Counted from the first letter of the stretch, positions 1,854-17,071 are shown. The stretch is 24,000 nucleotides of DNA from Mixta tenebrionis (GCF_006517625.1 NZ_VHQI01000002.1:175778-199777); one strand, 5' to 3'. Translations and numbers: made by a program. The notes: a model not told the origin generated them from the letters alone.

Positions 1854-1889
1854 AACGCCCTGCTCATCCGAGCGGGGCGTTTTCTTTTG
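1854..1889 (+). terminator. Rho-independent terminator after the secreted-protein genes
   Basis: The stem is AACGCCC (1854-1860) paired with GGGCGTT (1875-1881), followed by TTCTTTTGT. Confidence 0.6.
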
Positions 1890-1910
1890 TCTCTCAGAAA
1901 GGAAACTACC

Positions 1911-2729
1911 ATGCGTTTAGCCAGCCGTTTTGGCGCGGTGAACCTGGTTCGCCGTGACCGCCCCCTGACCCGTGATGAACTGGCACACTATGTGCCCAGT
2001 GTGTTCAGCGAGGAAAAACATGAATCACGCTCAGAACGCTACACATACATTCCCACCATCACCCTGCTTGATAATCTGCAGCGGGAAGGTTTTCAGCCAT
2101 TCTTTGCCTGCCAGACCCGAGTGCGTAATCCCGATAAGCGCGAACACACCAAACACATGTTGCGACTTCGCCGCGCAGGACAGATCACCGGCAAGCAGGT
2201 GCCGGAAATCATCCTGCTTAACAGTCACGACGGCTCCAGCTCTTACCAGATGTTGCCGGGATTATTCAGATCGGTTTGTCAAAATGGGTTGATTTGCGGT
2301 GAGTCTTTCGGGGAGGTGCGTGTGCCGCATAAAGGCAACGTAGTAGAGAAGGTTATTGAAGGGGCTTACGAAGTGTTGGGGATATTTGACCGCGTGGAAG
2401 AGAAACGCGACGCCATGCAGTCGCTGATATTACCTCCACCAGCGCAGCAGGCACTGGCAAAAGCCGCGCTGACATACCGCTTTGGTGAAGAGCACCAGCC
2501 GGTGACGGAAACACAAGTCCTGTCTCCGCGCCGCTGGCAGGACGAAAGCGGTGACCTGTGGACGACATACCAGCGCATTCAGGAGAACCTGATTAAAGGC
2601 GGCCTGCCGGGCAGAACAACGAAAGGTAAACGGGCCCACACCCGTGCGGTTAAAGGTATCGACGGTGACGTGAAGCTTAACCGTGCCCTGTGGGTGATGG
2701 CAGAAAGCCTGCTGGAGAGCCTGAAGTAA
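1911..2729 (+). CDS. DUF932 family protein (YfjQ/YafZ-like)
   Basis: MRLASRFGAVNLVRRDRPLTRDELAHYVPSVFSEEKHESRSERYTYIPT... matches my memory of the YfjQ/YafZ family. The ATG at 1911 is preceded by AAAGGA. Its position in the island fits. Confidence 0.85.
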   Translation: MRLASRFGAVNLVRRDRPLTRDELAHYVPSVFSEEKHESRSERYTYIPTITLLDNLQREGFQPFFACQTRVRNPDKREHTKHMLRLRRAGQITGKQVPEIILLNSHDGSSSYQMLPGLFRSVCQNGLICGESFGEVRVPHKGNVVEKVIEGAYEVLGIFDRVEEKRDAMQSLILPPPAQQALAKAALTYRFGEEHQPVTETQVLSPRRWQDESGDLWTTYQRIQENLIKGGLPGRTTKGKRAHTRAVKGIDGDVKLNRALWVMAESLLESLK

Positions 2730-2980
2730 TGCCGCACATCCCCGATGGCGTGATTCAGGTCACGCCACATTAATGTTCCGTGAGCCACCAGTCTGGTTGC
2801 CGCTCCATCTGTGACGACGACCTGTGCGCCTCATCTCTTTTATCGCCCCGGTGAACTCAGCCTGTGCAGCTTAAGCATCCCTGAGGGGCACTGGCCCTCG
2901 CGCTGTGATGATGATGGCTATGTGCAGTTCTGTCCTTCACTTCTTCACAACAACCCACATCAAAATACAAAGGAAACCAA

Positions 2981-3457
2981 ATGAACAACATACTCACCCT
3001 GACCAGCCCGGTGACTGAATCTCTCACTTCACCACGTACTGATGCAGACCGCATCAAATGCATGCCCGTACCCGATGAGCAGCGTGCCGCCTTCTGGCCG
3101 CAGCACTTTGGCCGCATACCGCTGTGGATAACCCTTGAGCCGCGAATCTTTGCCTGGATGGACCGCTTCTGCGCGGATTACAGCGGCGGTATCTGGAATT
3201 TTTACTCACTCAGCAACGGTGGCGCGTTCATGGCTCCCGATGCCGGCAGCGATGAACAGTGGTCATTGTTTAACAGCATGAACGGTAACGGCGGTGAACT
3301 CAGCGCCGAAGCGGCAGGGATTGCGGTCTGCCTTATGGCTTACAGCCATCACGCCTGCCGGACGGAATGCGATGCCATGACAAAGCACTATTACCGCCTG
3401 CGCGATTACGCGCTGAATCATCCTGAATGCAACGCCATCATGCACATCATCGACTGA
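2981..3457 (+). CDS. Anti-restriction protein, KlcA/ArdB-like (YfjX family)
   Basis: The segment [50 protein letters not shown] is typical of the Antirestrict (KlcA/ArdB) family. It sits directly upstream of the radC-like gene, as in CP4 elements. Confidence 0.85.
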
Positions 3458-3468
3458 GGCCAGCCACT

Positions 3469-3978
3469 ATGGAACAACAGCTACCATTGTTTGCCACCGC
3501 ACTACCGGCATCCGCACAGCAGACTATCAGGGATGCGTTAACCCTGCTGGCGTGCCAGCTACGTGAACCCGGCGCGTCATTCACGTCCAGTCAGGCGGTC
3601 CGGGACTGGCTGCGTCTACAGCTTGCCACCCTTGACCGTGAAGCCTTCACCGTCCTGTGGCTGGATAACCAGCATCGCCTGATAGCCCACGACACGCTCT
3701 TTCTGGGAACGGTCAACGCTGTCACCGTTTATCCACGTGAGGTCGTTAAATCCGGTCTGAAAAATAATGCCGCCGCTGTCGTTCTTGCGCATAACCACCC
3801 GTCGGGTGAGGCAGAACCGAGTAAAGCCGACCGGCTGATTACAGAGCGCCTGCAGCAGGCGCTTGAGCTGGTCGATATTCGTCTGCTGGACCACCTGGTT
3901 ATCGGCGGAATGGATATCGCCTCGTTTGCCGAACGCGGCTGGTTACAGGGAATAAGCCTTGATGAAAATCATCAGTAA
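3469..3978 (+). CDS. RadC-like JAB/JAMM domain protein (YeeS/YfjY/YkfG family)
   Basis: It carries the JAMM motif [15 protein letters not shown] and ends ...FAERGWL. The ATG at 3469 (MEQQLPLF) is the plausible start. The tracked ORF starts earlier, inside the previous gene. Confidence 0.85.
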
Positions 3979-4183
3979 GCGCCAGGCGATGGCGATATAC
4001 CGTCAGCATCCGCAGTCCAGGCTGTTTCGCTTCTGTACCGGCCGGTATCAGTGGTCAGGCAGTATCTGCCACTATGCCGGTCGGGAAGTGCAGGATATCA
4101 GTGGTGTACTGGCCGTATTCGCTGAACGCCGCCAGGACCGCAACGGCCCGTATGTCGTATTGCGCAGCGTTACCCTGAATTAA
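3962..4183 (+). CDS. DUF987 protein (YeeT/YpjJ/YkfH family)
   Basis: [31 protein letters not shown]...[26 protein letters not shown] is colinear with E. coli YeeT as I remember it. Confidence 0.8.
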
Positions 4184-4205
4184 TCTATTCCTGAGGATTA
4201 CCTAA

Positions 4206-4562
4206 ATGAAAAACACCAAAAACCATGATATTGCCGAACCTTGGTGGGGACTTAAACCCACCATCACGCCGTGCTTTGGCGCACGACTGGTGCAGGAAGG
4301 CAACCGGCTGCATTATCTGGCTGACCGGTCCAGTATCACCGGAACATTCAGTGATGCGGATTTACGCCATCTCGACCAGTCGTTTCCTCTTCTGCTGAAG
4401 CAGATGGAGCTGATGCTTACCACCGGTGAGCTGACTCCACGCCATCAGCATTGTGTCACGCTATATGCGAAAGGGTTGACCTGTGAGGCCGATTCGCTCG
4501 GCTCGCAAGGCTATATCTATATCGCGATTTATCCAACACCAGGCAACAGCGTAACCCGTTAA
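4206..4562 (+). CDS. cbeA: Type IV antitoxin CbeA/YeeU family
   Basis: PWWGLKPTITPCFGARLVQEGNRLHYLADRSSITGTFSDADLRHLDQSFPLLLKQMELMLTTGEL.PRHQH.VTLYAKGLTC is near-colinear with YeeU/YfjZ. Confidence 0.9.
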   Translation: MKNTKNHDIAEPWWGLKPTITPCFGARLVQEGNRLHYLADRSSITGTFSDADLRHLDQSFPLLLKQMELMLTTGELTPRHQHCVTLYAKGLTCEADSLGSQGYIYIAIYPTPGNSVTR

Positions 4563-4619
4563 TCCCTTTCCCTGAACCATCACTCTTTTCAAACCGCCTT
4601 AATTCAGGAGCATTACCTT

Positions 4620-4961
4620 ATGCAAACCCAGTCATTATCCCCAACGCGGGAGGCTTCTTCACGCCCGTCCCCCGTAGAGATCTGGCAACGGCTTCTGGGC
4701 CACCTGCTGGATCGCCACTACGGTCTGACGCTCAACGACACGCCGTTTGGCAACGACGGCGTGATTCAGGAGCATATCGACGCCGGTATCACACTGGCTG
4801 ATGCCGTTAACTTTCTGGTGGAAAAGTACGAGCTGGTTCGTATCGATCGCAGGGGATTTAGCTGGCAGGAACAATCGCCCTACCTGCGGGCTGTAGACAT
4901 TTTGCGGGCGCGACAGGCAACGGGTCTGTTACGGCGTAGCCGTAACATCGCAGCATTGTAA
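4620..4961 (+). CDS. cbtA: Type IV toxin CbtA/YeeV family (cytoskeleton-targeting)
   Basis: [31 protein letters not shown]...[20 protein letters not shown]...[11 protein letters not shown] is the family signature. It lies immediately downstream of the antitoxin. Confidence 0.9.
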
Positions 4962-5027
4962 ATCTTGCGAGCCTCCTTCCCGAATTACATTCCCGATCTG
5001 TCTTCCTTATTTACTCATTGCATAATG

Positions 5028-5060
5028 CGCCTGCCACTCCCGGCAGGCGTGTTTGCTTTT
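5028..5060 (+). terminator. Rho-independent terminator after cbtA
   Basis: An 8-bp GC-rich stem pairs CGCCTGCC (5028-5035) with GGCAGGCG (5042-5049), followed by TGTTTGCTTTT. Confidence 0.6.
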
Positions 5061-5075
5061 ATACGGACAAAAATC

Positions 5076-5909
5076 ATGCAAACAGAAGCTGAAGTCTTAA
5101 CTGACCATAATGAGCTAATTTGCTCAACCAGTATTGAACGCATCGTCACAGGACGTGATGCTGCGCTGAGTCTGATAGAAATCCTGATCCATAAGCTTGA
5201 TGATATCTCACGGCTAACTTCCAGCATCGGTGGTGATGTGGCGGAGCATTGGGCGATGCGACAGGGCCATTCCTTTGACTGCTGGCTGATGCAGCCAGTA
5301 GATAAAGCGATGCCGGTGATTACCCGCAATATCGACCGCAGTATCTGGCGCGATCTCATGCTGAAGTCCGGGTTGTTGACTCTGATGGATGCCGAGGCCC
5401 GCAGTCAGTGGGCGAAGAACCTGGAGGAGGGCGATCTCCCGGCTATTAGCGAAGCCAACATCCTGAGTACATTTGAACAACTCCACCACAATAAGCAGGA
5501 TGTTTTCGAACGTGGGATTATCAATGTATTTAAAGGGTTAAGCTGGGACTACAAAACCAACAATCCCTGTTGTTTCGGTAAGAAGATTATCGTCAACAAT
5601 CTGGTGAAGTATGACAGATGGGGCTTCAGTCTGAACTGGGGCTGGCGGCGCGATCAGTTAGCCGATCTGGAGCGCATGTTGTTCCTGCTGGATGGTAAAA
5701 CCATTCCCGATAACCGGCACGATGTGACTATCCGGCTGATGGATTTTATTCGCGATAACCCGCATCAGCAGGTCTTTGAGGATGAGCTATTTACTATTCG
5801 CTACTTTCAGAAGGGCAGCGGACATATCACGTTTAAACGCCTTGATCTGGTGGAGAAGATGAATGACATCGTGGCGAAGCACTTTCCGGGGATGTTGCCT
5901 GCGAAATGA
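5076..5909 (+). CDS. DUF4942-like protein (YeeW-position gene)
   Basis: It sits directly after cbtA, as yeeW-type DUF4942 genes do. The ATG at 5076 (MQTEAEVL) lies after the terminator. The family call is from context and memory only. Confidence 0.6.
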   Translation: MQTEAEVLTDHNELICSTSIERIVTGRDAALSLIEILIHKLDDISRLTSSIGGDVAEHWAMRQGHSFDCWLMQPVDKAMPVITRNIDRSIWRDLMLKSGLLTLMDAEARSQWAKNLEEGDLPAISEANILSTFEQLHHNKQDVFERGIINVFKGLSWDYKTNNPCCFGKKIIVNNLVKYDRWGFSLNWGWRRDQLADLERMLFLLDGKTIPDNRHDVTIRLMDFIRDNPHQQVFEDELFTIRYFQKGSGHITFKRLDLVEKMNDIVAKHFPGMLPAK

Positions 5910-8029: not shown

Positions 8030-8243
8030 GTTGAGTGCCTTTATTTCTCGGTTGATGCTTAAATAAAAACGACCAACCTGCCCAATTAGGACTGGTTGGT
8101 AACAGTATTTTTTACCGTGTTATCAGAAAACTACCTGCCAGGTAAAGAGCCGACAGACAAAAAAGATGTCTGCAATAACGCCTTGAATGTACATATAGTT
8201 GCAAGCATCATCGCAAATATGTGCTCATGGATTCTCCAACGCG

Positions 8244-9122
8244 ATGACCTCTGACAAAACCCTAAAGCAAGCGATATCAAATATTACTATTTGGCGCAAA
8301 GGCGAACAGCGTGCGCCACATAAGCCATTATTGCTGCTGCACGTCCTCTCACACTATCGGCAGGGTCACGATCGCCTGTTTAACTATGGTTCTGAAATCT
8401 ACGAGCCCCTATTGGATCTCCTGGAACGTTATGGACCGCAGCGCCGTGACCAGCGCCCAGACATGCCGTTCTGGCGTCTGAAGGGCGATGGCTTCTGGGA
8501 ACTACAAAACGCGGAACTGTGCTCAACCAATGGTAGCCGCCAGCCGCCCCGACGTGAACTGATCGAATATAATGTCGCGGGTGGGTTTGATGCCGATAAT
8601 TTTGCGTTGGTGGCAAAAAATCACAGGTTAATTGATACGCTGGCGCAGCAGCTCCTGGAGGAGCATTTCCCGGCCAGTATTCAGGAAGACATCGCTGATG
8701 AGATGGGTTTTGATATTCGCACCTCTCTCCGTAAACGTGATCCAAAGTTCCGCCAGATGGTGCTACGTGCTTACAATTATCAGTGCGCGATCTGCGGCTT
8801 CAACATGCGTCACGATAATGCGCCGATTGCTCTTGAAGCTGCCCATATCAGATGGAAGCAACATCATGGCCCTTGTGAAGTATCCAATGGCCTGGCACTG
8901 TGTGCGATCCATCATAAAGCGTTTGATCGTGGCTCGATTGGCCTGGATGAAAATATGCGTGTGATGGTTTCCGACGCGGTAAATGGTGGTGGGGTGGTAC
9001 AGCGATTGTTCTGGGATTTTGCGGGAAAGGCGATTGCGTTGCCACCGATTAAAGAAAATTATCCGGGCGAGCGGTTTGTGGAGTGGCATAGGGAAGAGGT
9101 GTTCAGAGGAGAGAGAATCTGA
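8244..9122 (+). CDS. HNH endonuclease with an N-terminal modified-DNA reader domain, probably a ScoMcrA-type sulfur-binding (phosphorothioate-dependent, type IV) enzyme
   Basis: The C-terminus has an HNH signature, YQCAICGF...EAAHIRW...NGLALCAIHHKAFD. The N-terminus carries APHKPLLLL...MPFWRLKGDGFWEL, which I recognise as the SBD-HNH family hallmark. The first in-frame ATG is 8244; the tracked ORF starts at a TTG at 8199. Confidence 0.65.
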   Translation: MTSDKTLKQAISNITIWRKGEQRAPHKPLLLLHVLSHYRQGHDRLFNYGSEIYEPLLDLLERYGPQRRDQRPDMPFWRLKGDGFWELQNAELCSTNGSRQPPRRELIEYNVAGGFDADNFALVAKNHRLIDTLAQQLLEEHFPASIQEDIADEMGFDIRTSLRKRDPKFRQMVLRAYNYQCAICGFNMRHDNAPIALEAAHIRWKQHHGPCEVSNGLALCAIHHKAFDRGSIGLDENMRVMVSDAVNGGGVVQRLFWDFAGKAIALPPIKENYPGERFVEWHREEVFRGERI

Positions 9123-9196: not shown

Positions 9197-12100
9197 TCAC
9201 ATCGTCCAATGATTCGAAATAACTTCCGCTTGTTTTAAAATTAACTCCACCGCACCCGCTGTTTTATCTGGCGGATATTTATACCGACGCAGAGTCTGTC
9301 GAACCAGAATACGCAACCTTGCACGAACGCTTTCGCGCACTTGCCAGTCCACCGTTGTGGATTGCCGCAGCTTCAGCGTCACTTCTATCGCCAGCTTCTT
9401 AAGTACCTCATCCCCCAACTCACGAACGGCGCTTTCGTTTTCTGCCAGTGCGTCGTAGAAGGCGATTTCGTCAGGATTCAGGCCAAGTGCATCATCACGC
9501 GCCATTGCGGACTGAAAATCCTTCGCCATCTGGATCAGCTCTTCAATCACCTGCGCCGTCTCAATAGCTCGGTTGTTGTATTTAATCAACACTGCCTGAA
9601 GACGTTCAGAATACTTCTTCTCCTGCACTACGTTATTTTTAGTTCGGGACTGGATACCATCATTAATCAGTTTTTCCAGCAATTCTACCGCCAGGTTGCG
9701 ATATGGCATATCGTGGACTTCCTGCAAAAACTCATCAGAAAGTAAGCCAATATTGGGCTTATCCAGCCCGGCTAGCGTGAAAATATCATCCACGCCATTA
9801 GCAATTACGGCATTATCCAGAATCTGTTTCAGTGCGGAGTTCTTCTCGGCCTGGCTTATTTTTTTGTCCACGCTGGTGAATTTACTGATAGCGGCCTTCA
9901 CCGCAGACAAGAAAGCAATCTCCAGTTTATAAGGCTGCGCCGCGTCCAGCGTACAGCAAAGCGACCAGGCTTTAGTAATTGCCAGTACGTTATCAAGAAA
10001 ACGCTTCTTACCGTCCTCAAGGCCGAGCACGTAGTTTGCAACAGGCACCAACAGCTTTTGTGCGTGAGCTTCAAAGCCGGTGTAGTCAAAACCCGCTGAC
10101 GTTGCTGTTTTGGCAAACATACCGTGGATGATGTCCAGCTTTTCCAGCATGATTGCCAGCGCTTCTTCGGCATTAATGGTCGCATCGCCTTTACCGTTTG
10201 CATCGGTATAGGTTTTCAGCGCTAGTTTCAGTTCATTGGCTATTCCGATGTAATCAACCACCAGCCCGCCGGGTTTATCTTTAAATACCCGGTTGACGCG
10301 GGCAATGGCCTGCATCAGGTTATGTCCGCGCATTGGTTTGTCGATATACATAGTGTGGCAGCAAGGGGCGTCGAAGCCGGTCAGCCACATATCGCGCACA
10401 ATCACCAGCTTCAGCGGATCGTTCACATTCTTGAAGCGTGACTCTAGTCGTTTTTTAGTTCGCTTGTTGTAGATATGCGGTTGCAGCATTGCCTTATCGG
10501 ACGCTGTACCGGTCATCACGATTTTGATTTGTCCTTTTTCAGGATCGTCATTGTGCCACTCCGGGCGTAGCGCGATAATTTCATCGTAAAGATGGACGCA
10601 GATTTCTCGGCTCATCGCGACAATCATCGCCTTGCCGTCCATTACGGTATTGCGCTTCTCAAAGTGGGAAATCAGATCGGCGGCAATCTGTTGAAGCCGT
10701 GGTTTTGCACCAACCAGTTTCTCCAGACGGCTCCATTCACCTTTGGTTTTTTCACGCAGGTCCAGCTCATCATCTTCAATCAACTCATCAACTTGATCGG
10801 AGAGCGCCGCCAGTTCTTCATGATTGAGATCGAGTTTCGCCAGCCGGGATTCGTAGTGAATAGGCACCGTTGCTCCATCGTCCACCGCATCCTGAATATC
10901 GTAAATTGAGACGTAATCACCAAATACAGCGCGGGTATCGCGATCCTCTGCCGAAACCGGTGTTCCGGTGAATCCCAGAAACGAGGCGTTAGGCAGCGCG
11001 TCGCGCATATGTTTAGCGTAACCGTATTTATAGATGCCGGTTTCCCGGTCCAGGTTGGCTTTCATGCCGTACTGGCTGCGGTGCGCTTCATCGGAAATAA
11101 CAACGATGTTACTGCGTCCATTGAGTACCGGATGGGCGTTTTCCACTTCCTCCGGGGAGAACTTCTGCACAGTGGTAAAAATAATGCCACCAGCATCACG
11201 GGTCGCAAGCAGTTCACGCAGTGCTTCGCGGTCCTCCGCCTGCACCGGCATCTGTTTGAGCAGTTCCTGCGCTTGGCAGAATGTGCCGTAAAGTTGGCCG
11301 TCCAGATCGTTACGATCGGTTACGACCACAATCGTTGGGTTGCCCATCTCCGGCTGTTGTAGCAGTTTGCCGACATAACAACACATGGAGATGCTTTTAC
11401 CGGAACCTTGTGTATGCCAGACCACACCTGCTTTCTTACTGCCAGGCTGAATGTTGCTGTGCAGGGCCAGTTGCTTACCGGTAGCAGCGACAATTGTCGC
11501 CTGCACGGCCTCGCGCACCGCATGGAACTGGTGATAACCGGCTATTTTTTTAATCAGCCTTTCATCGTTGTTCTCGAACAGGACGAAGTAACGGATATAG
11601 TCGAGCAGCAGCTCCCGGTTAAAGAACCCACGCACCATAGTTTCCAGTTGCCATTCCAGCAACGGCTTATCATTTTCATTGCTGATGGTCTTCCACGGCA
11701 TAAAACGTTCTTCCGTGGCCGTCAGGGAACCCACACGCGCCAGATAGCCATCGCTGACAATTAGCGCTTCATTGCTGATAAACAGATCGCGAATTTCATC
11801 TTTATAGGTCTGTAACTGGTGGTAGGCATCCCAGATATCTACTTTGTCGTCGATGGGGCTTTTCAGTTCCACCACCGCCAGCGGCAGTCCGTTAATAAAG
11901 CAGATGATATCCGGGCGACGAGGCTGTTTCGTCCCGCTGATGGTCATTTGATTGACCACCATAAAACGGTTGTTTTGCGGCTGGTTAAAATCCACCAGCA
12001 GAGCGTGATCGTGGATAAGTTCTTCGTCGCGGCGGTATTGTACCGGAACCCCTTCCAGCAGCCAGTGATGGAAGGCTTTGTTACTGGCAATCAGATCAGG

Positions 12101-12331
12101 GCTTTCAGCGCGAGTAATACGGGAGATAACCTGTTCGAAGACGTCTGCGGGCAGATGCGGGTTGATTTTTTGCAGGCAGGAGGCCAACACGGGCGTGAGG
12201 AACACATCATGATAACTGGCGCGTTGCGGGTTACTGCCATCCGGGGCAATATCCGGCCCGTGATTAATTTCCCAGCCTTGTTCGGCAAACCAGCCCAGGC
12301 AAAGCTGTTCTAAGTCGTCTTCGGTTAGCAT
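9197..12331 (-). CDS. hsdR: Type I restriction enzyme R subunit
   Basis: It is 1044 aa. It has an N-terminal PD-(D/E)xK nuclease ([20 protein letters not shown]), a Walker A motif (HTQGSGKS), a DEAH box ([10 protein letters not shown]) and a long helical C-terminal domain. AGGA lies 8 nt before the ATG. Confidence 0.95.
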
Positions 12332-12346
12332 CGGTAACGTCCTGTG

Positions 12347-13543
12347 TTAAACGTGTTCGGCTTCTTCAGTGATAATTTCAGCTTCATCATGCCCGTTAAA
12401 GGTCTGCTTAATCAACTGATTAAGTTCCGGTAGACATGTTGAAAAGGCTTTTTCAAATGTCGTCATATGTTCTACCAACCAGTCGACCATCTCCGGCCAC
12501 TTTTCCTGATCTGCGATGCCATTGATGGGTTTTCTGTAAGTAATACGACAGGATTTCTTATCCGGTAAGGCCTGCCAAACTATTTCATGCCCAAAACGAT
12601 TTTCGATAGCAGATTTGCGTTCATGAAGCCAGTCAAATGCGAATGTATTGGTTTGCGCAGAAGGTTTGGCAATCCAAAGCTCAACTCTCATTTCTTTTTT
12701 GCTGAAGATAAGATTGTACGAAACGCCACTGATGCCAGAACCCGCGCTTAACCAGTGGTCGGTTGATGGGCTGATATTATTGTAGAGTGAACATGAGCTA
12801 ACGCGGAATTTCTCCAGAGCCTGGGTCCAGAACGCCTTACGTAAATGGTGGCGAGCTTTGGATTCTCCAGTCGTGGACTGCTCCTCAGCCTCTTTCTGCG
12901 CCATATCGATCATGTAAGATTCCGCTTCCGGCGTTGGGATAACCTGCTTGATATCAATAAATACATCGTTACCATAACGGTAAGGTGTGACCTTAAAGCA
13001 CTGCACGCGAATATTGAACTGCATTAACCAGAGTGCGGTATTGGTTGCTTCTTTGCGGAAATTTGCTGCGACCATCATGATACGCTGTGAACGATTCTGG
13101 TTAATTTGCACCTCTTCCAGGCTATCGTGCTCAAGAAATTCAGCCAGCACGTCAGCCGCAGGACGCGTTTCTTCTGGTTCGTTCTGATCAAGGTAACGCT
13201 GGAAGATCTCTACGATGTGTTCTTTGCGCAGGTTCGCACAGTAACCCGCATATTTAAGCGCCTGCCAGACGACATCGCGCCCGGAATCATCGAGTTTGTT
13301 CTCAATGATCACCAGATTACCGTCTTTATCGATCGCCAGTAGATCAAGCCGCTCTTTGGTGTCGTCAAACCCGGCAAACTCTTTCTGGATGATAAGTAGT
13401 TCATCATCACTGTTGCGAGTCAATGCCTGCGGATGCTTCGCCAGCCATTCCTGCAAGTGATAGCGTTCGGTGAAACCCGCGTTAGTGAAAGTGGTTTCCT
13501 GGAGCGGTTGTAGGCTATTGCTGGGCTGATCGACTTTAAACAT
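12347..13543 (-). CDS. Restriction-endonuclease-fold (PD-(D/E)xK) plus DUF4268-like protein embedded in the type I R-M operon
   Basis: The N-terminal half reads ERYHLQEWLAKHP...KERLDLLAIDKDGNLVIIENKLDD, a D...ExK nuclease core of NucS/DUF91-like architecture. The C-terminal third (FWTQALEKF...WL..G...ELWI...FDWL...K..IENRFG.EIVWQALPDKKSCRI) fits my memory of DUF4268. The start overlaps the hsdS stop by 8 nt, and the stop is 15 nt from the hsdR ATG. Confidence 0.7.
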   Translation of the reverse strand: MFKVDQPSNSLQPLQETTFTNAGFTERYHLQEWLAKHPQALTRNSDDELLIIQKEFAGFDDTKERLDLLAIDKDGNLVIIENKLDDSGRDVVWQALKYAGYCANLRKEHIVEIFQRYLDQNEPEETRPAADVLAEFLEHDSLEEVQINQNRSQRIMMVAANFRKEATNTALWLMQFNIRVQCFKVTPYRYGNDVFIDIKQVIPTPEAESYMIDMAQKEAEEQSTTGESKARHHLRKAFWTQALEKFRVSSCSLYNNISPSTDHWLSAGSGISGVSYNLIFSKKEMRVELWIAKPSAQTNTFAFDWLHERKSAIENRFGHEIVWQALPDKKSCRITYRKPINGIADQEKWPEMVDWLVEHMTTFEKAFSTCLPELNQLIKQTFNGHDEAEIITEEAEHV

Positions 13544-14822
13544 AGTCAGCTTCCTTTGCTAATTCTTCGGCTTCCGGCAGGGTGATTTCACCGGAGAGGA
13601 GTTTGGGGAGTAGGGTATCGCGGAGTTGTTCCAAGTACATATTTTGAGTTGTATTAACACCAACCTTCTCATAGATACTGGTTAGAATTTCCTCTAGTTT
13701 TTGCCATAGCGCTGTTATCGGTGTCACAATATTCAACCTCATAATGTCTTTAGGATAAACATGAGGCTGGGCTGCTCCTTGTTGCATATGGGTAATTTCT
13801 TTCTGTCTAATTTTGAGTAGAGTATAAAAACAATATACAAACTGTGTTTGAATTTTATTTATATATGAACAGTCTGAAGCCCAAATATTACAATGATATA
13901 AATTAACAAAGCCAGCATTGGCTCCAGAAGCACTTATAGTTATCACAGGCGCAGTAACATTATATTTACTATGGTAGTAAGCTGGTACCAAACCTCCAGC
14001 GACGACAGGAATACCACCTTCTTCGATAGTTTTTTTTGTTATATTTTTCCCTTTCTTAGGTTCAAGGATTGTCCCTAGGCTTTCTAACGCCCAGCCCTCA
14101 GGAATCCCTCCTGACTCGTTTTCCTGCATTGCAGATGGGAACAACTCTGCTGTAGCTCTAAGTTCAGCATATTTTACAGGATGTTTTCGCTCAAATACAG
14201 CCAATGAATCAGTATCCTTTCCGGAAATCGCCGTCATGGCAGCAAGCGTTGCATCTTCTTGCGAACCACCTGCTTCCAGCACCGCGATTTTGGCTTTTAC
14301 CGGTTCAAAATCGACAAACCAACTTTTGAAAAGGGCTTGTGCCATTTGTTCGAGGGTTTGGTTAATATCTTGATTTAAATTTATTTTATTCTCTAAAGCA
14401 AAGAGAGTTGATGCAATTTCTGACTGAATTTTGTAGGAAGTAGGGAATTTAACTTCGAAAGGGTAAACAGCATTTCTATTCAAAGATTTCTGGGCGCTTC
14501 CAGAATTAAACTGTTCAAAATTTATTTGTTTAAGAAAATAATAAATAAACTCTGGGCAGTTACCCTTGAAATCAGAAACATAAAGACAAGTATTCAAAGG
14601 CCAGTAATTTTCTGAGACATAAGAAACCTGCCCCATGGAATTACCACTGCGTCCGATAATTACTCCGGGGCCTTTCGCTTTGAATTGATTATGATAACCA
14701 GTGATCCCTGAAGATCCCATAATTGGTATTTGACCATGTGTTCGATCCTGAGAAGGAAGATCATGACCCCTCTGTAATGTTATTATGTCTCCAAGTTTTT
14801 TTATCTCCCAATTAGCATTCAT
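13536..14822 (-). CDS. hsdS: Type I restriction enzyme specificity subunit
   Basis: Two variable halves are separated by the conserved spacer LEQMAQALFKSWFVDFEPV and closed by its repeat, LEQLRDTLLPKLLSGEITL. The ATG at 14822 overlaps the hsdM stop by 11 nt. The tracked ORF has an upstream extension to 14861. The variable parts are visibly AT-rich. Confidence 0.9.
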   Translation of the reverse strand: MNANWEIKKLGDIITLQRGHDLPSQDRTHGQIPIMGSSGITGYHNQFKAKGPGVIIGRSGNSMGQVSYVSENYWPLNTCLYVSDFKGNCPEFIYYFLKQINFEQFNSGSAQKSLNRNAVYPFEVKFPTSYKIQSEIASTLFALENKINLNQDINQTLEQMAQALFKSWFVDFEPVKAKIAVLEAGGSQEDATLAAMTAISGKDTDSLAVFERKHPVKYAELRATAELFPSAMQENESGGIPEGWALESLGTILEPKKGKNITKKTIEEGGIPVVAGGLVPAYYHSKYNVTAPVITISASGANAGFVNLYHCNIWASDCSYINKIQTQFVYCFYTLLKIRQKEITHMQQGAAQPHVYPKDIMRLNIVTPITALWQKLEEILTSIYEKVGVNTTQNMYLEQLRDTLLPKLLSGEITLPEAEELAKEADYV

Positions 14823-16521
14823 AACCAAGTCCCTTAAGGTTTGCCTTAATCTGCATTTCAAGTTTCACACTGCTTTCAAACTGTTCTTTTAGCTGCGCCG
14901 TCAGTCGCGTCATTTTCTCCGCAAACGGCTCATCATCCTCTTCCTGCTCGGCAGCACCAACATAGCGCCCAGGGGTTAAGACAAAATCATTTTTCTTTAT
15001 ATCATCTAGCGTGGCAGCAAAGCAGAACCCAGCCTCATTTTCATAATCCTTATCCGTCTGCCAGGCATGGAAAGTATCGGCAATCTTCCTGATATCATCC
15101 GACGAAAAGTCGCGTAATACGCGGTCTTTCATAAAGCCAATCTGGCGAGCGTCGATAAACAACACTTCACCTTTACGGTGCGCTTTGCCGTTACCACCTG
15201 ATTTGTCTTTGGTCAGTAGCCAGATACAGGCCGGGATTTGGGTGTTGGTAAACAGTTGACCCGGCAGCGCTACCATACATTCCACCAGATCCGCCTCAAT
15301 AATCGCCCGACGAATTTCACCTTCACTGTTGGTATTGGAACTCATCGAACCGTTCGCCAGCAGCAGCGCCATTGAACCTTTCGGGGCCAGATGGTGGATC
15401 ATATGCTGCATCCAGGCAAAGTTGGCGTTGCCCTGCGGCGGGGTGCCGTATTTCCAGCGAACATCCTCTTCCAGCGTTTTGCTCCACCACTCCTTCATGT
15501 TGAATGGCGGATTCGCCATAACAAAATCGGCACGTAAATCCGGGTGCTGATCGTTCAGGAACGTATCGGCGTTCTGTTTACCGAAGTTAAAATCGATGCC
15601 GCGAATCACCATGTTCATTGCAGCCAGACGCCAGGTGGTAGGGTTGGACTCCTGCCCGTAAACGGAGATATTGCGCTTTTGCTCGGCAGCGTTGTAATGC
15701 TTTTCATCAGCATGCGCTTCGATAAAGCGATCGCTGGAAACGAAGAAGCCACCGGAACCCATCGCTGGATCATAAACACGGCCATTATAGGGCTGAAGCA
15801 TTTCAACAATCAGCGTGACGATGCTTTTCGGCGTGTAGTACTGGCCGCCCTGCTTGCCTTCCGCCAGCGCGAACTGACCGAGGAAATACTCGTAAACGTG
15901 ACCGAGAATATCTTTGCTCTTCAAATTGAGCTTCACGCCATTGTATTTAGGTTCGCTGAAACTGGTATCGGAGAAAACGTTAATCAGGCTGATTAATAGG
16001 TCATTGCCAAGCTGATAGTGCCCGATACGGTTAAGGATGTTTTTCAGTTTCGGGTTGCTGTTTTCGATAGTATCCAGAGCGATATCAATCAGCTTCGATA
16101 CTGACGTCATGACAATATCTTTGCCGCTATCGTCTTTCCCCAGAACCGTCCCTACAGGCAGAGCTGCGTTGGTTTTGAGCGTTTCCCAGCGAGCCAGTTT
16201 GGGCACCCAGAAGACGTTTTTCTCAGTGTAGTAATCCTGAACTTCCAGCTCTTCTGCGATCGCCTGCTGGTATGCCTCTTCCGTGTCGTAATCATCACGA
16301 GAAAGCGCGTAAATGTTGTCCGGGTTGGACTTGTCTTCAAACAGCCCTCTCAGCTCCTTCTGACGGGCGTCAAAGGCATCTGAAACATACTTCAGAAAGA
16401 TCAGCCCCAGCACCACATGCTTGTAGTTGGCCGCGTCCATATTGGCGCGTAGCTTATCTGCGGCTTTCCAGAACTTAGTATCCAGATCGTTCAGAAATTG
16501 CTGTTCAGCGTTGTTCATCAA
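14812..16521 (-). CDS. hsdM: Type I restriction enzyme N6-adenine DNA methyltransferase subunit
   Basis: It has an HsdM N-terminal domain (FWKAADKLRANMDAANYKHVVLGLIFLKYVSD), AdoMet motif I (VYDPAMGSGGFF) and catalytic NPPF (MANPPFNMKEW). Confidence 0.95.
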   Translation of the reverse strand: MMNNAEQQFLNDLDTKFWKAADKLRANMDAANYKHVVLGLIFLKYVSDAFDARQKELRGLFEDKSNPDNIYALSRDDYDTEEAYQQAIAEELEVQDYYTEKNVFWVPKLARWETLKTNAALPVGTVLGKDDSGKDIVMTSVSKLIDIALDTIENSNPKLKNILNRIGHYQLGNDLLISLINVFSDTSFSEPKYNGVKLNLKSKDILGHVYEYFLGQFALAEGKQGGQYYTPKSIVTLIVEMLQPYNGRVYDPAMGSGGFFVSSDRFIEAHADEKHYNAAEQKRNISVYGQESNPTTWRLAAMNMVIRGIDFNFGKQNADTFLNDQHPDLRADFVMANPPFNMKEWWSKTLEEDVRWKYGTPPQGNANFAWMQHMIHHLAPKGSMALLLANGSMSSNTNSEGEIRRAIIEADLVECMVALPGQLFTNTQIPACIWLLTKDKSGGNGKAHRKGEVLFIDARQIGFMKDRVLRDFSSDDIRKIADTFHAWQTDKDYENEAGFCFAATLDDIKKNDFVLTPGRYVGAAEQEEDDEPFAEKMTRLTAQLKEQFESSVKLEMQIKANLKGLGYEC

Positions 16522-16539
16522 AACCTCAAGAAATCATTT

Positions 16540-16645
16540 GTGTCTGGTTCGGGATCCAGGTTGCGGAGAAGCAGGGAAATTGCCAGAGATCATACCCTGA
16601 CGTCAGCGCGATACCAAGATGCAGGGCAAGATTCCGAACCAACAC
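16540..16645. repeat. Imperfect inverted repeat of about 17 bp flanking about 73 bp, immediately upstream of hsdM
   Basis: GTGTCTGGTTCGGGATC (16540-16556) pairs with the reverse complement of GATTCCGAACCAACAC (16630-16645), with one mismatch and one indel. It lies in the hsdM leader/promoter region. Confidence 0.35.
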
Positions 16646-17071
16646 CTTGTGATAAGGAGGATTATTCTTTTGCACTTTCAGCGCAAAATGTCGGTATTTT
16701 TATTTCGCTACCTGGTATTGTGCAGGTCGAGGTAGATCTTGCGATAGCCATAGATGCAACCTGACTCCATTTAAGCCGGTAGTAAATCGCCGCCTGTTGC
16801 AGGCTTAATATCTCAAGGTTGCCCACAGGCTTGCCAGCTCGCTCTCTTCTTCAGGAAGCATTCTGATTTAACAAACAGACACAGCAATATCTCAATTTTT
16901 CTGTGATCAAAATAATCCCATTTTTTTAACATATCAATCATTTTAATCAGCACTATTAAATTAATATTTTTTGATTTTAACTGTAATTACGTTACTTTTT
17001 ATATGCTTATTCTTTGTGGAGGAATTATATTATATCGAACGGATACATAACCCTGGAAAAAGGTTACATCC

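Follow-up and report, generated by a model that had tools for sequence, protein, structure and literature searches.

The gene referred to here as X (12347..13543, minus strand; 398 aa) is flanked by hsdS and hsdR in a type I restriction-modification (R-M) operon on a 24,000-nucleotide stretch of DNA from Mixta tenebrionis (GCF_006517625.1 NZ_VHQI01000002.1:175778-199777; hereafter the window). Its profile match, domain architecture and motif place X in the PDC-S11/Madara/MdgA family, and it is predicted to be a modification-dependent (type IV) restriction endonuclease. We suggest that X probably functions as a single-polypeptide, autonomous, type IV-like enzyme that is co-expressed with the type I R-M system as complementary cover, and that it is very probably a defence gene covering phages that escape type I restriction. 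The anatomy of the operon, the fold, the conservation of the catalytic residues, the family membership and the distribution were computed here, and the activity and its dependence on modification are taken from published work on family members.

In the mechanism that we propose, the DUF4268 domain of X would read hypermodified phage DNA, e.g. the glucosyl-hydroxymethylcytosine (ghmC) of T-even phages, and the NucS-like PD-(D/E)XK domain, with D67, E81 and K83 together with E26, E55, Q94 and Y98, would, probably in dimeric form, cleave it. X would share a transcript with the type I genes and its translation would be coupled to that of hsdS, and for that reason both activities would be made together. 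The labour would be divided between HsdMSR, acting against unmodified and unmethylated DNA, and X, acting against DNA whose base modifications resist type I restriction, and X would need no R-M complex for its restraint or its activation. One mobile module might thus cover unmodified as well as base-hypermodified DNA, and a neighbouring phosphorothioate-dependent HNH nuclease may add a third logic. We infer the specificity of X for modified DNA from the published activity of family members, and the linkage to the type I genes would serve complementary coverage or co-regulation.

Domains, catalytic residues and family of X

The two halves of X are recognized with different ease. The C-terminal DUF4268 (12437..12844, minus strand; aa 234-369) matches PF14088 with an E-value of 2.4e-39 and is modelled with a predicted local distance difference test score (pLDDT) of ~95-98. 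The N-terminal NucS-like PD-(D/E)XK nuclease domain (12935..13543, minus strand; ~aa 1-203) is identified by Foldseek and by the NucS_C matches of relatives, and the direct nuclease-domain matches in X are weak (PDDEXK_4 and NucS, both sub-threshold, aa 50-123). When AlphaFold2 (AF2) was run with 36 close homologues the N-terminal domain had a pLDDT below 50; an 82-sequence alignment cured this and gave a model with a pLDDT of 93.5 and a predicted template modelling score (pTM) of 0.69. In a Foldseek search against the PDB, the N-terminal half of this model found NucS (2vld_A, E 1.9e-4) and EndoMS (5gke_A, E 2.4e-4), both with a probability of 1.0, followed by Shedu SduA. A profile search of PDB sequences with X returned nothing significant.

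The catalytic motif D67-x13-E81-x-K83 (DLLAIDKDGNLVIIENK) is encoded at 13295..13345 on the minus strand. Seven residues (E26, E55, D67, E81, K83, Q94 and Y98) do not vary in any of 83 closer homologues; in 82 sequences reaching down to 29% identity, E26, D67, K83, Q94 and Y98 remain invariant, and conservation of E55 and of E81 is at least 90%. In NucS the D, E and K residues are spaced identically (D-x13-E-x-K), and Q and Y likewise come after them. The NCBIfam NucS equivalog scores X at 15.1 bits against a cutoff of 216, with a match limited to aa 65-107. Neither an ABC-ATPase nor an anticodon-nuclease domain was found in X with Pfam, NCBIfam and PADLOC, which give only DUF4268, PDDEXK and NucS-like matches, and Pfam detected no DUF262 or DUF1524 of the GmrSD/TgvAB type. 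X is not a member of the PrrC, NucS or GmrSD families. A preliminary description of the window had assigned X a DNA-nuclease fold with a C-terminal DUF4268 in place of an ABC-ATPase/anticodon-nuclease architecture and had asked that the catalytic residues be conserved; the Pfam, AF2 and Foldseek results and the seven invariant residues agree with it on all of these points.

The profile evidence for family membership comes from the PADLOC models. The PDC-S11 model PDLC04913 matches X over its full length (E 8.6e-178; X aa 1-380 versus profile 1-373/375), and 8 of the 8 PDC-S11 models match. The family is large, with more than 6,900 clusters at 90% identity (E<=1e-5) and at least 5,503 clusters at 50% identity in an exhaustive search (E<=1e-3). 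Some relatives share just the first ~220 residues with X and have other C-termini, and their N-termini match Pfam NucS_C above threshold; others, P0193 and P0169 being among the architectural variants, carry DUF4268 in tandem, with three or four copies in some. We read such modularity as the pattern that would be expected if a nuclease is combined with sensor domains that can be exchanged. Further variants (P0186, P0198, P0210, P0213, P0215, P0237 and P0238 among them) combine the NucS-like nuclease with C-terminal regions that match no Pfam family and are possible alternative sensors.

Payne et al. (2024) arrived at the PDC families through "guilt by embedding" in loci of BREX, DISARM and type I R-M systems, and two lines of published work address what PDC-S11 proteins do. 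Madara, the renamed PDC-S11 gene of Escherichia coli ECOR34, restricts Tevenvirinae and wild-type T4 (ghmC) when cloned alone under its own promoter, and does not restrict T4(C); its D63A substitution abolishes defence, and its AlphaFold3 (AF3) model consists of an N-terminal NucS-like PD-(D/E)XK domain and a C-terminal sensor-like domain termed EVE-like (2026 preprint, bioRxiv 10.64898/2026.09.05.749240). MdgA and MdgB are DUF4268 nucleases from metagenomic selections, each of which gives single-gene defence against T4 and not against T4-GT7; purified MdgA degrades T4 (glucosyl-hmC) DNA far more than unmodified or T4-GT7 DNA, and MdgA E77A is inactive (PMC12366544, Cell Host Microbe 2025). 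DUF4268 has also been reported as an accessory domain fused to GmrSD type IV enzymes (PMC4619093). In those E. coli homologues in which the stretch before the motif is four residues shorter, D67/E81/K83 become D63/E77/K79, the same numbers as those of the Madara and MdgA mutants; this agrees with a correspondence of these positions but is no proof of it.

Operon anatomy, coupling to hsdS and distribution

All four open reading frames of the operon lie on the minus strand in the order hsdM-hsdS-X-hsdR. hsdM (14812..16521; 569 aa from the first possible start) encodes the methyltransferase subunit with HsdM_N and N6_Mtase (Pfam, E 4.6e-114; PADLOC MTase_I, E 1.8e-172); hsdS (13536..14822; 428 aa from the ATG at 14822) encodes the specificity subunit with two stretches of Methylase_S in Pfam and a match to PADLOC Specificity_I (E 3.6e-107); and hsdR (9197..12331; 1044 aa) encodes the restriction/translocase subunit with HSDR_N, SWI2_SNF2, ResIII, T1R_D3-like and T1RH-like_C in Pfam and a TIGR00348 match (E 1e-186). 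According to Pfam, NCBIfam and PADLOC the host operon is thus a complete type I system, intact and co-oriented, in which HsdM carries N6_Mtase, HsdS two target recognition domains (TRDs) and HsdR a nuclease and a superfamily 2 motor. In the mechanical calls both genes begin with a TTG, that of hsdS at 14861 and that of hsdM at 16521, with an ATG codon immediately after the latter; the ATG at 14822 is the more plausible start of hsdS, and the ATG at 16518 probably that of hsdM. HsdR is only distantly similar to the HsdR of EcoR124I (E ~1e-29, aa 103-488). EcoR124I is a type IC enzyme and EcoprrI is also of type IC; given this distant similarity, a type IC/EcoprrI kinship of the host system was rejected.

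The junctions are tight. The hsdM stop at 14812 and the hsdS ATG at 14822 give an 11-nt overlap; the hsdS stop and the X start overlap by 8 nt (ATGTTTAA; 13536..13543, minus strand), an arrangement for translational coupling, with a Shine-Dalgarno-like AAGGAAG 8 nt 5' of the X start codon; and X, with its stop at 12347, is separated from the hsdR ATG at 12331 by a 15-nt spacer that contains AGGA (CACAGGACGTTACCG; 12332..12346, minus strand). Gene order, overlaps and spacer were correctly given in the preliminary description, as the reading-frame coordinates and junction sequences confirm. From them it had concluded that X cannot be expressed independently of the R-M genes, and here the tight coupling to hsdS is clear; a consensus promoter/terminator scan across the operon is at background, with 13 sites versus 11.6 +/- 4.0 expected, and neither supports nor excludes an internal promoter for X.

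At least 489 species in a one-genome-per-species collection encode a relative of X. The context classes were drawn from the best 80 species loci of these, at 52-99% identity, a sample that is biased toward the subfamily to which X itself belongs. In ~56 of the 80 loci the gene lies right after hsdS and upstream of hsdR, with 33 exact S-X-R arrangements and 23 with extra genes before hsdR; seven are otherwise adjacent to type I genes (M-S-R-X, X-M-S-R and similar), and in 17 (~21%) X is solo. A survey of how often homologues occupy the interval between hsdS and hsdR had been proposed in advance, and it reveals a strong enrichment in type I loci. Because it recurs in dozens of species, the hsdM-hsdS-X-hsdR arrangement is far beyond chance. 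The genes found between X and hsdR encode RhuM/Fic-DOC, Abi_2 and Schlafen-AlbA_2/HATPase_c_4 proteins, which are familiar type I cargo, and the S-R interval is a general cargo or landing slot for accessory defence genes.

The solo copies adjoin BREX genes (BrxL with a PifA-like gene), a UvrD/NERD helicase gene or a DdmD-like helicase gene, or sit between gyrA and a gene for an MFS transporter. Among distant relatives, P0259 (30% identity) has the M-S-X-R order and P0132 (41%) lies among housekeeping genes. X-like DNA occurs in 184 of 5,426 complete E. coli genomes (~3%), and all E. coli chromosomal contexts that were inspected are M-S-X-R, including one with a different type I family that has an 807-aa HsdM. 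Homologues are also found on 380 plasmids, mostly of Klebsiella. The form with 61% identity, carried by IncFII plasmids, stands alone in the plasmid loci that were inspected, and solo copies of close homologues occur on other plasmids too. Phage-borne copies are essentially absent, with three partial matches.

The coupling to hsdS is itself conserved. An identical 8-nt hsdS-X overlap, ATGT[T/A]TAA, is present in 37 of the 54 loci in which it could be measured, and in the majority of S-X-R loci the distance from X to hsdR lies between -4 and +15 nt. When positions 9197-16712 of the window are compared with six related loci (L011-L016), hsdR, X and the 3' end of hsdS show ~95% nucleotide identity across Mixta, Hafnia, Dryocola and Escherichia sp.; the figure for hsdM is ~89%, and the TRD region of hsdS (~13630-14820) does not align at all. 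Embedded and solo copies of X were compared at the residue level: 140 alignment columns with at least 90% conservation among embedded copies retain their residue in at least 80% of the solo ones, and no column combines at least 90% conservation among embedded copies with less than 60% among solo copies. Because no column is conserved solely in embedded copies, no R-M-specific surface is apparent on X.

Autonomy of X and rival explanations

Several observations weigh against the reading of X as an autonomous type IV-like enzyme. About 70% of its close homologues lie directly after hsdS, the overlap is identical in more than two thirds of the measurable loci, and the arrangement extends to relatives with 30% identity; this strong positional conservation exceeds what co-expression needs, and a functional link to the methyltransferase core could lie behind it. 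The connection of X to Madara and MdgA rests on the shared PADLOC family, domain architecture and matching residue numbering. The DUF4268 half (aa 234-369) resembles, in Foldseek and weakly, YbjN and T3SS-chaperone-like alpha-beta folds (target TM-score up to ~0.5), and there is no known modified-base reader among the top 50 hits for this model; because the fold is unlike that of a known modified-base reader, the sensor role of DUF4268 is best called putative. The EVE-like fold described for the corresponding domain of Madara was considered for DUF4268 and was not reproduced, the nearest folds being the weakly scoring YbjN and T3SS-chaperone-like ones. Finally, the authors of the Madara study leave a non-specific abortive outcome possible (10.64898/2026.09.05.749240).

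The positional conservation bears on whether embedded X is a coupled accessory subunit that needs or is strongly boosted by the type I system, perhaps brought in by HsdS/HsdM or by HsdR that has stalled while translocating on modified DNA, with autonomy confined to the solo relatives. The deep conservation of the hsdS-X overlap, the inheritance of hsdR, X and the hsdS 3' end as a block and the retention of M-S-X-R down to 30% identity all speak for such a subunit, as does TgvAB, a type IV system embedded in a type I operon of Vibrio cholerae, which protects 10-100x better inside its five-gene cluster than alone. However, TgvAB is independent of the nuclease activity of HsdR, its boost is likewise independent of HsdR catalysis and has been ascribed to expression and stoichiometry, X has no conserved residues specific to embedded copies, and X is frequently parted from hsdR by additional, unrelated cargo genes. 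Moreover, in a neighbour-joining tree the solo copies are scattered among the embedded ones, implying at least ten context switches within one subfamily. We regard an accessory subunit as unlikely. A physical or regulatory link of embedded X with the HsdM2S core, in which for example the methyltransferase gates or recruits the nuclease or X reports type I failure, is in our judgement improbable; if it existed, X would parallel the PrrC guard, with a DNA nuclease as the effector and on top of an intrinsic sensing of modification.

A guard proper was the proposal of the preliminary description, which saw X in the slot that prrC occupies between hsdS and hsdR, took it to be latent under the R-M complex and to fire upon type I inhibition, and knew of no functional characterisation of this gene type. 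The slot is indeed the same; Madara and MdgA have been characterised, and because family members have been characterised already the guard interpretation is largely superseded. In this scenario HsdMS(R) would keep X latent until an anti-restriction protein that inhibits the type I enzyme frees a DNA-degrading suicide or second-line effector. The position shared with prrC of EcoprrI, the strong enrichment in type I operons and the coupling to hsdS would suit a guard, but homologues defend alone and sense DNA modification rather than R-M inhibition, X lacks the ABC-ATPase and anticodon-nuclease domains of PrrC, and solo copies occur frequently, on plasmids as well as on chromosomes, and are interspersed in the tree, with no conserved position lost. 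X also persists intact beside decayed partners, namely an hsdR annotated as a pseudogene in E. coli P276M (L002) and an hsdS split into pieces of 103 aa and 305 aa (L096), a situation that would be hazardous if X were a masking-dependent toxin. PrrC, in contrast, is almost exclusively embedded in R-M loci (Payne et al. 2024), as against ~21% of X homologues that are not embedded. These data speak against latency under the R-M complex, and we consider a PrrC-like guard very unlikely.

Two further explanations would change the output of X rather than its partners. X might sense modified phage DNA and then degrade DNA indiscriminately, including that of the host, and so kill the infected cell; we give this abortive outcome very little credence. 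The authors of the Madara study explicitly leave it open, and NucS-like/Shedu-type nucleases include abortive systems, SduA being a structural neighbour of X; on the other side, purified MdgA tells T4 from T4-GT7 DNA in vitro, which fits ordinary type IV restriction. It is extremely unlikely that X is a housekeeping repair endonuclease of the NucS type or a decaying passenger without a role in defence: although NucS/EndoMS is the closest solved fold, the equivalog score of X is far below its cutoff, its second domain differs (DUF4268), it is found in mobile defence islands and on plasmids, and it is intact, with 140 columns conserved alike in embedded and solo copies. Having weighed these alternatives, we favor the model in which X is an autonomous modification-dependent nuclease made together with the type I enzyme.

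The surrounding island and known systems

The operon is part of an island with further defence-related genes. Convergent with hsdR, and outside the operon, lies a gene for a phosphorothioate-DNA-dependent HNH restriction endonuclease (8199..9122, plus strand; NCBIfam NF045808, E 1.2e-133), and E. coli MB07011 (L001) has this neighbour too. With homologues in four of the 80 loci, this nuclease was rejected as a conserved partner of X. The island backbone at 1887-5909 on the plus strand is typical of CP4-like elements and comprises DUF932, RadC, a CbeA/CbtA toxin-antitoxin pair and DUF4942; within it, an Antirestriction gene of the KlcA/ArdB type (PF03230) at 2981-3457 places an anti-type-I gene in an island that itself encodes a type I system. 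A search of the window for tRNAs gave none. Homology to L011-L016 ends at ~16712, the probable edge of the island, next to citrate-utilisation genes. In E. coli P276M the M-S-X-R module adjoins a type I Zorya system, and in three other E. coli loci (L095-L097) genes for aGPT-Pplase3/ADDT and thymidylate-synthase domains lie at ~14237-15191, a few kb from M-S-X-R. Such aGPT-Pplase3/ADDT and thymidylate-synthase proteins are thymidine hypermodification enzymes that are usually encoded by phages.

Because publications already cover the family, what its members do and their embedding in other systems, the finding adds little by itself. It does provide a probable function for the very common annotation "DUF4268 domain-containing protein" inside enterobacterial type I operons, an annotation carried by ~3% of complete E. 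coli genomes and by hundreds of Klebsiella plasmids. In islands of this kind three logics of restriction appear to be layered, directed against unmodified, base-hypermodified and phosphorothioated DNA, and such layering bears on the host range of phages in therapy and on plasmid transfer. The coupling of hsdS and X turns the wiring of accessory defence genes into R-M operons into a tractable question.

Among characterised systems, Madara shares with X the PADLOC family, the order of a NucS-like PD-(D/E)XK domain, a linker and a C-terminal sensor-like domain, a catalytic D63 that corresponds by motif to D67 of X, and a setting in a defence island in which it complements a system that targets unmodified DNA; Madara differs in having its own promoter, divergent from brxA of BREX and outside any type I operon, and in a C-terminal domain called EVE-like, a likeness that the Foldseek search with X did not reproduce. 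MdgA is, like X, a single-gene DUF4268 nuclease whose E77 fits the E-x-K of the motif and which is widespread across phyla, and for MdgA modification-dependent cleavage has been demonstrated in vitro; it is of metagenomic origin and also protects against Mu. NucS/EndoMS (PDB 2VLD, 5GKE) has the fold and the catalytic constellation of the nuclease domain of X, whereas X lacks the N-terminal DNA-binding domain and the clamp-binding tail of NucS and has DUF4268 instead, and the role of NucS is in repair.

With regard to genetic setting, PrrC of EcoprrI (E. coli CT196) occupies the same slot between hsdS and hsdR, and its defence is linked to T4-like phages. PrrC is, however, an ABC-ATPase-like anticodon nuclease that cuts tRNA-Lys, is masked by its R-M protein and is activated by Stp; it has no domain in common with X, whose family acts alone and on DNA. 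TgvAB resembles X as a type IV modification-dependent activity inside a type I operon with a proposed complementary coverage, which for TgvAB is directed against Tevenvirinae, although it consists of two proteins with DUF262/DUF1524 (His-Me finger) that are not homologous to X, a single PD-(D/E)XK and DUF4268 protein. In BREX-BrxU and similar pairs, where one enzyme is aimed at unmodified and the other at modified DNA, a modification-dependent nuclease is likewise genetically linked to a methylation-based system, although BrxU is GmrSD-like and the host system is another one. The pairing of BREX with BrxU and with Madara, and the presence of TgvAB in a type I operon, are direct precedents for the pairing of X with the type I system of M. 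tenebrionis.

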